Virus record (IMG/VR): IMGVR_UViG_2531839103_000015
Direction: 5' to 3' (one strand)
Source of the DNA: a virus
Lineage: Duplodnaviria; Heunggongvirae; Uroviricota; Caudoviricetes
DNA length: 4,699 nucleotides
This document shows, in pieces, positions 1-3,000 of this stretch (the stretch's first letter is position 1; every line of letters starts with the position of its first letter). A program made the position numbers.

Positions 1-3000
1 TACTGGCATCAACAGGGAGTACAGGCGACTCGTATGACAACGCGATGGCTGAGAGCATCAATGGTCTTTACAAAGCGGAGGTAATACACCGTAAGAGCTG
101 GAAAAACCGTGCAGAAGTGGAACTGGCCACACTAACGTGGGTGGACTGGTATAACAATCGACGATTGCTGGGAAGGCTGGGCCATGCTCCTCCGGCAGAA
201 GCAGAAAAAGCTTATTATGCTTCCATCGGAAACGATGATCTGGCAGCCTGAGTTCACAGATAAAACACTCTCCAGGAAACCCGGGGCGGTTCATGACTGT
301 TAAAGAGCGGGTACTGCTTAGGCGGCTTTGTTACTGGATGGAGGGAAAACATCATCCAAAGAACATTGGCACCCTAACTTCCTGAGGCCTTCTACGATCA
401 TTCGGCAATCGTTAAGGCCAGGAGTACGGATATTCAGCTCATAGTTGGCGATGCGGGATTGCCCCCAACCAATTGCCGAAGCTAGTACAGCTTGCGAAAC
501 TCCGATTTTTTTTCGCTGCTGGGCAATTTTGTTCATTGCGGTCTCCCTAGCATTAATCACACACCCATTACACACAATTTGTGATTAACAGTCAACCTCA
601 ATTCGTGTACAGAGTTCAATCACGTTGCGTGTTACATTTAAGGGATGAAAACGATGCATGAAATTATCGGGGAAAGGATCAAGTCCCTTAGAGAAGCTAA
701 AGGACTTAGCCAGGCTCAATTGGCCAAGCTTTGCGGCTGGGCTGCGCCTTCACGCCTGGGGAACTACGAGTTAGGAACAAGAAAGGTTAGCGCGGATGAC
801 GCGCTGGTTCTTGGGGCGGCACTCGGCGTATCTCCGGCAAAAATAATGTTTGGCGAGGATTCAGACGCCGTATTTCGCCAATATGAATACCCGTTATTTT
901 CTTCAGTGCAGGCCGGGCCATTTTCGGAGGTGGGAAGCTACACAGCCAGCGATGCAAAGGCATGGGTCCCAACGACCACAAAAGCCAGCGAAAAAGCTTT
1001 CTGGCTTGAGGTGAAGGGGCATTCAATGACGGCGCCTCAGGGGGTTCGTCCAAGTTTTCCGGAAGGCATGCTGATACTCGTTGATCCGGCTGAGCCGGTA
1101 GAGTCTGGGGATTTCTGCGTGGCTTCTGCAAATGGTGATTCAGAGGCAACGTTCAAGAAGTATGAGAAGGATGCAGGGGTTAGTTACCTGGTACCTTTAA
1201 ACCCGGCATATAGAACCCTGGATTGCGACCATAGCTGCCGCATCATAGGCAAGGTAGTTAAGGCGCAGTGGCCTGAAGAGACGTTTGGCTGATCGGCAAG
1301 GTGTTCTGGTCGGCGCATAGCTGGTAATCCAACTTTTCCCTGTTCTTTTTATGCAAATTAATCTAATGAAATTGAAAAGATTTTTACCTATTTTGTTGGT
1401 TCAGGAGAACATAAATGAGCGATAAACAAGAAGTTTCCTTAGCACATATCAATGATGTGCTGGAGTCCAAAAATTATATTGAAACTAATGCTGATGGGGT
1501 TGTAACCATCGGAACGGATAACAATGGCTACGAAGTTTTTAACTTCGTTTTTCTCAATAGCACCCCTGTCATCGGCCATATGAATGGCGAAATCGCAGTG
1601 GCAGGAATGCAGCGCACTAAGGTTGCGTCCGTGACTTTAAGTAAACAGAAGGCCTTCGATTTCTATCAGTCCTTGAAAAGCATGTTCGAGGAATAAAAGC
1701 TGATGAATGCAGCTCAATCATCTTTGGATGAGGGAAAGCTAGTAATTGCTTACTCTGATAAGAATGGCTCTACAGTAGGGCTGGAATTTTCTTCTGTAGC
1801 ATCAAGCCAAGCAACGCTCTTGATGAAAGCTTGTTCTGTTGCTGCTTCAGATAAAGAAAAACGGATTGTCACATCGGTTGTGATGGATGATACTGAGATC
1901 ATTCAAACAACAAGTGATGATGGAGGCGACGACATGGATAAGCGATTAGCAGTTCTTGAAGCTGAAGTTGCGCACATCAAGAGCAGCATGGCAGGAATTA
2001 AAGAGGATACCCGGAAAATATCTTCTGATTCTACTGACGCCAAAAGAGACACCGCTGTACTTTTACAGAAGAGCCTGGATTTTGATGCTTCATTATCTAA
2101 GAAACCATCGGTTGACTACTTTGAAGCTAAATTTTCCGCTTTGGAAACCAAGATAGCAGATGTAAAAGTATGGATGCTCGGGGTTCTCTTGGCCTCGCTT
2201 GCTATGCCAACTATATTTTTCCTAATAAACTTGTACCTTAAGAAAGGTCAGTAATTTAGCAAATCCGGCCACCGAGCCGGGTTTTTTATTGCCCGCCGAT
2301 CACTATCAGGACAGCACCTGCCCGCCGGTCCAAACTATTGATTAAATTACTATAATTCTTAATACAACTCCCATATCCCGCCATCTCGCCACCACCCCAT
2401 TCGCTCGTTTTTCGAACTTTTCAGCACCCATCCTGCTGTTGCCACCGACTTAAGTAAGCAAAACCATCGCGGGTAAAACTATTTACACAAAAAAATCATA
2501 CACATAACGTGTCACACCTTTATTTTACACATTTTGTGATTGACCATTAAATCACAATATGTGACTATCATTTCCATCAGCAGGACGCTGAGACGCCACA
2601 AGGAACAGATTGGCAGGCTCTTTAACATCGACGAACTCTCAACCTAACCGTTGAGACCAGAACTTGAGTGGTTTTGGGGATGGCGCGAATTGCAGCTGCA
2701 AGACAGCGATCGAGAAGATAAACACCTCGACGCGTCATGCGCCAAAGCCACTTAAAGGAGACCATCATGGTAACCATTGTCTGGAAAGAATCCAAAGGTA
2801 CGGCAAAAAGCCGCTACAAAGCTCGCAGAGCAGAACTTATTGCCGAGCGACGCAGTAATGAAGCACTGGCGCGAAAAATTGCGCTAAAGCTCTCTGGTTG
2901 CGTCAGAGCAGACAAAGCAGCATCACTCGGAAGCCTTCGCTGCAAGAAGGCAGATGAATGCAGTGGAAGTATTTGCCTGCCAAACGTAGCCATTTACGCG

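Follow-up and report, generated by a model that had tools for sequence, protein, structure and literature searches.

The question raised by this locus is what two adjacent genes, placed directly behind a phage repressor gene, do for the prophage that carries them or for its host. The window analysed here is a stretch of 4,699 nucleotides (nt) from a Caudoviricetes record of IMG/VR (IMGVR_UViG_2531839103_000015), and its positions 302-4699 are 99.98% identical to the immunity/early-left region of prophage Sp15 of Escherichia coli O157:H7 Sakai, the Shiga toxin 1 (Stx1) prophage that is also named VT1-Sakai and, in strain EDL933, CP-933V. The cI-type repressor gene (ECs2990, 'phage repressor protein'; 645..1292, plus strand; Pfam S24 3.1e-26, HTH_31 2.4e-11) is the first gene of the operon, and is followed on the same strand by two open reading frames (ORFs): ORF-A (ECs2991/Z3359, WP_001280993; 1415..1696), encoding 93 amino acids (aa), and ORF-B (ECs2992/Z3360, WP_000990548; 1703..2254), encoding 183 aa. 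From sequence comparison and analogy, we propose with a probability of roughly 0.5 that this cassette is a prophage-encoded anti-phage exclusion or abortive-infection (Abi) module, and an anti-phage function of any kind seems to stand at even odds or slightly better. The proposal is based on the other occupants of the same slot, the linkage to the repressor, the production of the proteins in uninduced cells, and an architecture that combines a soluble partner with a membrane-anchored, putatively oligomerising one whose head diverges fast and is shuffled.

The position of the pair is best defined by comparison with sister phages. Locus L070 of IMG/VR carries the same cI and flanks and matches the window up to 1327 and again from 2262, with RexA and RexB in between (1.6e-109 and 8.6e-61 in PADLOC-DB, of which a 2023 version was used); the placing of the pair in the rexAB slot, as proposed in the preliminary description of this DNA, is thereby borne out. 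Phage mEpX1, which has the same cI, is 99.9% identical to the window through 1325 and 98.6% identical again from 2265, and its cargo consists of two different genes that correspond to the PADLOC candidate PDC-M63A/B (9.6e-41 and 7.6e-45). Identity with loci L069 and L070 stops at 1325/1327, and the flanks of the sister phages bearing rexAB or PDC-M63 are overall 98-99.9% identical to the window. In L124, the cI side is shared at 96% and the terminator region 2262-2300 at 87%, with BstA as cargo (PADLOC 9.4e-105). The left junction of the slot (1293..1327, plus strand) is common to lambda, 434, SfI, mEpX1 and the rexAB- and PDC-M63-bearing sister phages, the 33-35 nt after the cI stop being found directly 3' of cI also in lambda (37192-37226), 434 and SfI. 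Because these flanking junctions are conserved among phages with other cargos, window 1326..2264 (plus strand), which comprises an A+T-rich leader, ORF-A and ORF-B between the breakpoints versus mEpX1 and L070, is a discrete cargo. Phage HK544 has the cI, operators and N of lambda, yet carries the same cassette, 99.1% identical over window 1266-2301. The occurrence of one cassette behind lambda cI and of other cargos behind the same cI supports the earlier suggestion of an exchangeable, horizontally moved cargo.

A survey of 62 viral contigs of IMG/VR, chosen for a recognisable N gene and a cI that is Sp15-like (68-100% identity), demonstrates that the pair recurs between cI and N as a variable cargo: ORF-A/B occupies 7 of the 62 loci, and 32 different plus-strand cargos were found overall. 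Among twenty representative cargo proteins, PADLOC matches below 1e-30 were obtained for RexAB, BstA, PDC-S13 and PDC-M11A/B, together with one weak match to PDC-M24B. The alternatives found in the slot hence include the known Abi systems RexAB and BstA and the PADLOC candidates PDC-M63, PDC-M11 and PDC-S13, and the characterised occupants found here, RexAB and BstA, are all anti-phage. The cI-N region has been described as a mosaic hotspot that harbours rexAB and bstA (Owen et al. 2021, PMC8585504).

The right end of the slot is formed by an intrinsic terminator, detected by our scan at 2261-2284 plus a T-run. The whole timm-like feature (2261..2290, plus strand) is annotated in AP000400 as the terminator of the pRM transcript and in EF120455 as 'Timm'. 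It had been regarded as the cassette's own terminator; it does close the pair, but since phages with rexAB, PDC-M63 and BstA share it, it is the right slot junction and belongs to the slot. The hairpin, CCCGGCC-6nt-GCCGGG-T4, is near-identical in almost all related loci (L004-L061) from several genera, where it closes the slot, and could serve as homology for cassette exchange. The next, lytic operon, that of N, starts at the oL operators and pL (2498..2568, plus strand; AP000400 annotation transferred by offset), which delimit the slot on the right. Base composition gives a less distinct picture than the junctions. The preliminary description had given about 37% G+C for the cassette and about 60% for cI; the cassette is indeed lower than cI, but the values are 41.1% (1293-2289) and 52.5%. 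The claim of a clear contrast is not sustained, since the cassette is no lower than the neighbouring sieB (39.9%) and lies near the window mean (44.7%).

Both proteins have been detected in uninduced cells. ECs2991 is among the proteins identified in O157 cells grown in rumen fluid (PMC3936929), and lysates of strain 86-24, prepared both from LB cultures in stationary phase and from bacteria of infected piglets, contained Z3360 (APEX 858), in a study that saw only 13-16% of the prophage-encoded proteins (PMC3210124). Strain 86-24 carries an identical cassette, and an inducing agent was used in neither study. At the protein level, these published proteomics of uninduced O157 cultures point to expression in the lysogen. 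The detection by mass spectrometry, together with homologues of 23-99% identity in many Enterobacterales genera, also shows that ORF-A and ORF-B are not chance ORFs.

As to the transcript, our scan agrees with the earlier reading that no terminator lies between the cI stop (1292) and ORF-A; within ORF-A, its sole find is a weak A+T-rich hairpin at 1530-1548. The 122-nt spacer between cI and ORF-A contains no internal promoter at the threshold of the consensus scan. Since the spacer is devoid of promoter and terminator consensus, and in view of the lambda precedent and the depositors' annotations, we infer that cI, ORF-A and ORF-B are co-transcribed from the putative pRM (606..635, plus strand), which is the likely promoter and whose position was taken from the AP000400 (VT1-Sakai) annotation by coordinate offset. 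Each ORF is preceded by a Shine-Dalgarno sequence read from the DNA: AGGAG (1403..1407, plus strand) 7 nt ahead of the ATG of ORF-A, and GAGGA (1688..1692, plus strand) within the final codons of ORF-A, ahead of ORF-B. The two ORFs are separated by 6 nt, a spacing that makes translational coupling plausible; of the 33 distinct pairs collected here, most have 3-15 nt between the genes. In the window both ORFs share one reading frame, with TAA and two codons in between. This is probably a coincidence, because the frame relation is not kept in other loci (e.g. L004).

A domain in the cytoplasm followed by a C-terminal anchor, the architecture predicted for ORF-B, recalls the tail-anchored ElaB and YqjD of E. 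coli. It should be considered whether the pair, with ORF-A as the soluble partner of ORF-B, is a lysogenic-conversion cargo that helps the host apart from phages, for instance in envelope or stress physiology, in the tethering of ribosomes or proteins in stationary phase, or in colonisation. The conditions of detection, i.e. rumen fluid for ECs2991 and stationary-phase LB and piglet-derived cells for Z3360, would suit such a role, as would the confinement of the immunity-region genes ECs2989-2995 to O157 lineage I strains and the failure of the pair to match any defence model. On the other hand, the characterised occupants of the precise slot, RexAB and BstA, are anti-phage, the head and its partner diversify and shuffle like modules in an arms race, and the pair tracks not a host lineage but phage repressors, which are of many types and genera. 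We regard a host-directed benefit as unlikely.

The linkage to repressors is seen well beyond Sp15. The 33 distinct versions of the pair come from prophages of Escherichia, Salmonella, Serratia, Enterobacter, Klebsiella, Citrobacter and Cronobacter. At 29 of these 33 loci it was possible to call an ORF upstream, and in every such case the pair follows it directly on the same strand; HTH_3 was found in 28 and Peptidase_S24 in 23 of the 29 distinct upstream ORFs. Since their identity to the Sp15 cI is only 15-91%, the pair stands behind many immunity types, including the RacR-like repressors of Rac-type prophages. In 5426 complete E. coli genomes, the Sp15-type cassette is present in 94, mostly of O157:H7, and a Rac-type variant in 13; 94 of the 96 E. 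coli matches are chromosomal. The pair is found as a cargo of the lambdoid cI-N hotspot would be: behind and co-oriented with the repressor, with a terminator only after it, and exchangeable at conserved junctions. In the P22-like Salmonella phage UPF_BP1 (L152, 2087-2824), a related pair of 94 and 149 aa follows mnt, at the place of orf59a-sieA in P22. Its 94-aa partner aligns end to end with the ORF-A profile, although weakly (hhalign 22%, E 0.001), and may be a remote ORF-A homologue.

The strict coupling to repressor genes, whether CI-type, RacR-like or Mnt, would also be expected if the pair served the prophage's own cycle, i.e. the lysogeny-lysis switch, induction, or the timing of lysis at the membrane. 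A bioRxiv study reports that RexA/RexB aid the lysogenic-to-lytic transition, and the combination of coiled coil and transmembrane (TM) segment loosely resembles that of lysis accessory proteins; some relatives bear the JGI label 'SlyX' or match the NCBIfam 'phi X174 lysis protein'. The latter match is confined to a short relative and reaches 18.2 bits versus a cutoff of 103 (E 0.0021), whereas the SlyX similarity is far under threshold and restricted to the coiled coil, no SlyX/XhlA-like Pfam family being found for ORF-B at E <= 0.1. Furthermore, at least ten unrelated repressor specificities, and Mnt in addition, are found with the pair, which speaks against its specific interaction with any one switch, and the pair is dispensable, since phages that are otherwise identical carry unrelated cargos in its place. 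We rate a role in the prophage's own cycle as quite improbable.

The anatomy of ORF-B agrees with the earlier description of a soluble N-terminal part, a heptad-like coiled coil and a single C-terminal hydrophobic segment. An AlphaFold2 (AF2) model calculated from a 114-sequence alignment, with a mean predicted local distance difference test score (pLDDT) of 77, places strands at 10-18 and 24-33, a helix at 34-47, disorder up to 77, and helices at 78-132 and 137-181. The head module (aa 1-73; 1703..1921, plus strand) is thus predicted to be a beta-beta-alpha domain that leads into an acidic linker without ordered structure (aa 48-77), with pLDDT values of 87-89 at residues 11-50 and below 50 at 60-71. 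In one BLAST cluster, 64 homologous heads of about 73 aa were gathered, which are variable yet homologous. The head is joined to the tail by a near-invariant core, GGDDMDKRLAVLEAEVAHIK (aa 74-93; 1922..1981, plus strand), whose consensus in the family alignments is GGD[DN]M[ED]xR[LI]AxLExxVxxIK. Residues G74, G75, D76, R81, L85, E86, V89, I92 and K93 are invariant in all 18 sequences of alignment A1, and over the 114 sequences of alignment A5 conservation reaches at least 90% at G74, R81, A83, L85, E86, V89, I92 and K93.

The long helix of ORF-B (aa 78-132; 1934..2098, plus strand) shows in its first part a leucine-zipper-like heptad pattern, M78-L82-L85-V89-I92-M96-I99. A profile search of the PDB with residues 78-118 gave weak coiled-coil matches to SYNZIP, c-Jun and GCN4 (E 0.017-0.5), and the coiled coil terminates at a conserved SKKPS break. 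The hydrophobic segment comprises residues 157-175, with a hydropathy (KD19) maximum of 2.15. The C-terminal TM anchor (aa 157-177 of 183; 2171..2233, plus strand) is followed by LKKGQ only, an N-terminal hydrophobic stretch is absent, and AF2 predicts a helix at 137-181; all these features suggest that ORF-B is a tail-anchored coiled-coil membrane protein. Across the family the anchor occurs in four interchangeable types with unrelated sequences.

Two details of annotation bear on this model. A shorter ORF-B of 143 aa, starting from Met41, is annotated in several GenBank records including that of EDL933. The 183-aa start at 1703 is supported by the conservation of residues 1-40 in the family and by the confident AF2 beta-hairpin in that region. 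Z3360 has also been listed as a lipoprotein ('MKAC44S'), a call flagged by the authors themselves as 'no hydr LS' (PMC3210124). We reject this reading; Cys44 is part of a predicted helix, and no hydrophobic leader precedes it.

With a profile search, the ORF-B family grew to 171 proteins, many of which are shorter, with 93-140 aa. The short forms keep only the linker, the core, the coiled coil and the TM anchor. Three of them could be viewed in context: they sit right behind a repressor, with unrelated upstream partners of 138-142 aa. The idea that a shift of the gene boundary has turned ORF-A and the ORF-B head into these partners found no support (hhalign 0.1-0.2%). The length sums are about 270-277 aa in both subfamilies, and phrog_3556, the C-terminal half of which is matched by ORF-B residues 60-181 (1.2e-26), has 276 positions.

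Some loci contain further small genes after the pair. One is a family of opposite-strand ORFs of 63-69 aa in Salmonella, Enterobacter and Citrobacter prophages (L017, 4555-4746; L006, 6025-6234; L008, 5552-5749; all minus strand), with 37-55% mutual identity; Pfam and NCBIfam contain no match to it, and the window lacks a counterpart. The other is a lipoprotein of 117-118 aa (MKKV.ALALG..ML.GC...) directly after an ORF-B relative, at 5633-5989 (plus strand) in L006, an Enterobacter prophage immunity region, and at 2877-3230 (plus strand) in L153, Salmonella phage S107, near tail genes. The two contexts are otherwise unrelated, and this lipoprotein may be an optional third component or a separate moron.

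ORF-A is, as described before, an acidic soluble protein of 93 aa, with an isoelectric point of 4.85 and no hydrophobic segment. Its predicted fold would consist of five beta-strands and a C-terminal helix. The family alignment A4 comprises 27 sequences of 23-99% identity, and an exhaustive HMMER search yielded only about 15 credible small relatives; Fn3, FG-GAP and similar large repeat proteins were dismissed as relatives, their scores arising from additive weak profile matches to repeats. A weak motif had also been noted as shared by the ORF-A core and the ORF-B N-terminus, with a duplicated fold as a tenuous possibility. The motif is left unaligned by BLASTP, and a comparison of the family profiles with hhalign yields a probability of only 0.1-0.2%; both stretches are simply predicted beta-hairpins. 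The shared motif is thus not supported, and the duplicated fold of ORF-A and the ORF-B head is rejected.

ORF-A and the head co-vary. Over 26 loci, the identity of ORF-A follows that of the ORF-B head (Spearman 0.90, Mantel p 0.0005), and is only weakly correlated with that of the core (0.20), the tail (0.20) and the repressor (0.12). In the Serratia version the core and tail are 80-86% identical to those of the window, while the head and ORF-A are only 33-37% identical, and the Enterobacter version displays the opposite pattern. This co-variation across loci implies that 'ORF-A plus head' and 'core plus tail' are shuffled independently, with the core as the crossover point, and would fit an interaction between ORF-A and the ORF-B head.

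A tightly spaced pair of small genes with a soluble acidic protein ahead of a membrane protein, in which ORF-A co-varies with precisely that part of ORF-B which binding would require, brings to mind a toxin-antitoxin (TA)-like addiction module, where ORF-B would be a membrane toxin, ORF-A its neutraliser, and the prophage would be stabilised. No similarity to TA families was detected in Pfam, NCBIfam or PADLOC, though, and the sampled contexts place the pair only in repressor-adjacent prophage slots and not in plasmid or chromosomal TA settings; sister phages that lack the pair also speak against addiction. We consider this explanation highly unlikely as a separate one. TA and Abi functions are compatible with each other, and it partly overlaps with the exclusion or abortive-infection reading.

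Database searches add names but little explanation. ORF-A and ORF-B are full-length members of phrog_12039 (E 6.7e-65 over 1-93 of 93) and phrog_12602 (E 6.8e-124 over 1-183 of 183), respectively; since phrog_12039, phrog_12602 and phrog_3556 are without functional annotation, membership names the proteins and explains nothing. The functional libraries (Pfam, NCBIfam and PADLOC) contain no significant match, in line with the initial failure to recognise a named family. The suggestion of novelty holds in this sense only: the genes already appear as two 'conserved hypothetical proteins', followed by 'Timm', in the record of the HK544 immunity region (EF120455), and as PHROG families. The replacement of rexAB in HK544 is thus already recorded by its depositors, and the genes are not new to databases. 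In the literature searched, the identifiers ECs2991/2992 and Z3359/3360 and the WP accessions were found only in two proteomics lists and one table of comparative genomic hybridisation, and the pair was not found in the DefensePredictor supplements.

Several of these results weigh against an anti-phage role. Pfam and NCBIfam give only sub-threshold, chance-level matches (E 0.013-0.096, far under the curated cut-offs), PADLOC matches neither protein at E <= 1, and sequence and fold searches of the PDB yielded no significant match. The profile search of the PDB with ORF-A returned nothing, and Foldseek with the ORF-B model reached at best E 0.097 in BFVD and E 0.24 in the PDB, neither being significant; partial beta-grasp-like matches to protein L were among the results. 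No functional study of the pair was found in the literature, a search that did not cover Degnan et al. 2007 and Brenes & Laub 2025. Most of the 32 slot cargos are of unknown function, so that guilt by position is a weak argument. The ORF-A model, built from 12 sequences, is unreliable and not usable (pLDDT 46.5). The co-variation of ORF-A with the head could arise from the physical linkage of adjacent DNA alone, and the interchangeability of four very different TM tails is accommodated by a passive anchor at least as well as by a specific pore.

If the cassette is an exclusion or abortive-infection module, its action might be envisaged as follows. The operon, in the order pRM, cI, ORF-A, ORF-B and timm, would be expressed in the lysogen. 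The small, soluble and beta-rich ORF-A would bind the beta-beta-alpha head of ORF-B in the cytoplasm, forming a sensor and keeper unit, while the C-terminal anchor would hold ORF-B at the inner membrane and the leucine-zipper-like coiled coil would let it oligomerise. A product of the infecting phage would then disturb the complex of ORF-A and the head, and the coil-TM tails would permeabilise or depolarise the membrane or bring about premature lysis, or would act on a membrane-proximal step of infection, and the invader would be stopped. The cytoplasmic orientation of the head is inferred. Sensing inside the cell is favoured because the whole of ORF-A and almost the whole of ORF-B should lie in the cytoplasm, a block of DNA entry from the periplasmic side being less likely. 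This sequence of events, i.e. recognition of an intracellular phage product by ORF-A and the head and a subsequent effect of the zipper-TM tails at the inner membrane, is put forward tentatively, as one possibility that we would not expect to hold in full.

By extension, the family might represent a modular class of prophage immunity, in which a tail-anchored membrane-effector chassis is combined with interchangeable heads and beta-rich partners that sense different phages, and is wired to the repressor of the lysogen. The chassis would comprise the Gly-rich linker, the GGD-M-x-x-R..LE core, the leucine zipper and one of the four TM anchors, and the repressors to which it is wired would be of the CI, RacR-like and Mnt types. 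This generalisation is likewise speculative, and its failure seems more probable than its success.

If correct, the proposal would add to the prophage immune repertoire a new protein family that is unrelated in sequence to the others, modular, and spread over many Enterobacterales genera. In O157:H7 lineage I strains, the family would have the Stx1-converting prophage as its carrier, and could shape which phages, including other Stx phages and therapeutic phages, grow on O157:H7. The shuffling of heads and tails furnishes natural chimeras for the dissection of sensor and effector. The question is directly testable, because natural isogenic comparators with the same cI and rexAB, PDC-M63 or the pair exist, as does the plaque-forming HK544. 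Even if the pair is not a defence system, it is among the few Stx1-prophage proteins made in uninduced cells and deserves a functional look.

The remainder of the window supplies the context of the cassette. An end of an insertion sequence (IS) of the IS3 family, IS1203/IS629, occupies 1-301 and is inserted 16 nt past the stop of a cro-like helix-turn-helix gene (318-575, minus strand), inside the annotated nutR region; pR-cro is thereby cut off from cII-O-P. The IS/prophage junction is present in 5 of the 5426 complete E. coli genomes, and the prophage of the source strain is probably impaired in lytic development. Between the terminator and oL, about 190 nt (2290-2480) are without an ORF; the plus strand is strongly C-rich there, with a GC skew of -0.37 to -0.46, TGCCCGCCG is repeated at 2290 and 2319, and the stretch is kept in sister phages bearing other cargos. 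N (2767-3039; Pfam N_peptide 3.3e-17) is followed just past its end by a homologue of the known exclusion gene sieB (3056-3637, minus strand; Pfam SieB, PF14163, 1.1e-25; phrog_1301), 0.8 kb from the cassette in the same window. A DUF2528/Ea10-like gene (3898-4266) and cIII (4339-4503) complete the window, and the lambda cIII thermoregulator element of Rfam (RF01804; 4326-4384, plus strand; 88.5 bits, E 2e-21) overlaps the start of cIII.

Among known systems, RexA/RexB of lambda provide the closest parallel. They occupy the same place, from the cI stop to timm on the cI strand, the gene of the soluble protein comes first and that of the membrane protein second in both pairs, and RexA/RexB are expressed in the lysogen, as ORF-A/B probably are. 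The proteins themselves differ, as had been supposed: the PADLOC models of RexA and RexB do not match ORF-A or ORF-B at E <= 1, RexA has 279 aa versus 93 aa in ORF-A, and RexB is a polytopic protein of 144 aa, whereas ORF-B has 183 aa, a predicted cytoplasmic head, a coiled coil and a single anchor at its C-terminus. Also, a pLit-like internal promoter was not detected by our scan. BstA of prophage BTP1 is a cargo of the same slot, directly after the repressor and presumably sharing its promoter (PMC8585504). In contrast to the two proteins considered here, BstA consists of one soluble protein (about 300 aa) and exerts its effect at the sites of phage replication, and the PADLOC BstA model does not match ORF-A or ORF-B.

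SieA and SieB of P22 are, as proposed for ORF-A/B, lysogen-expressed and belong to the membrane proteins of lambdoid or P22-like prophages. Pfam SieB matches neither ORF-A nor ORF-B, and in the window only the neighbouring gene at 3056-3637. The hydrophobic stretch of that SieB homologue, LIHMLIILIILIIVMPV, is near the N-terminus, while ORF-B is tail-anchored, and a gene for a soluble partner of SieA or SieB is annotated neither in P22 nor in the window, whereas ORF-B is preceded by ORF-A. Mycobacteriophage Butters encodes another two-protein system, gp30/gp31, of which the membrane partner is polytopic. Like ORF-A/B, it joins a cytoplasmic and a membrane protein that are prophage-expressed near immunity genes (PMC7542560), and the likeness is one of logic only. 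The hosts and sequences of the Butters proteins are unrelated to those of ORF-A/B. If the pair is a defence system, it would be one of Rex-like slot and logic that is built from unrelated proteins.

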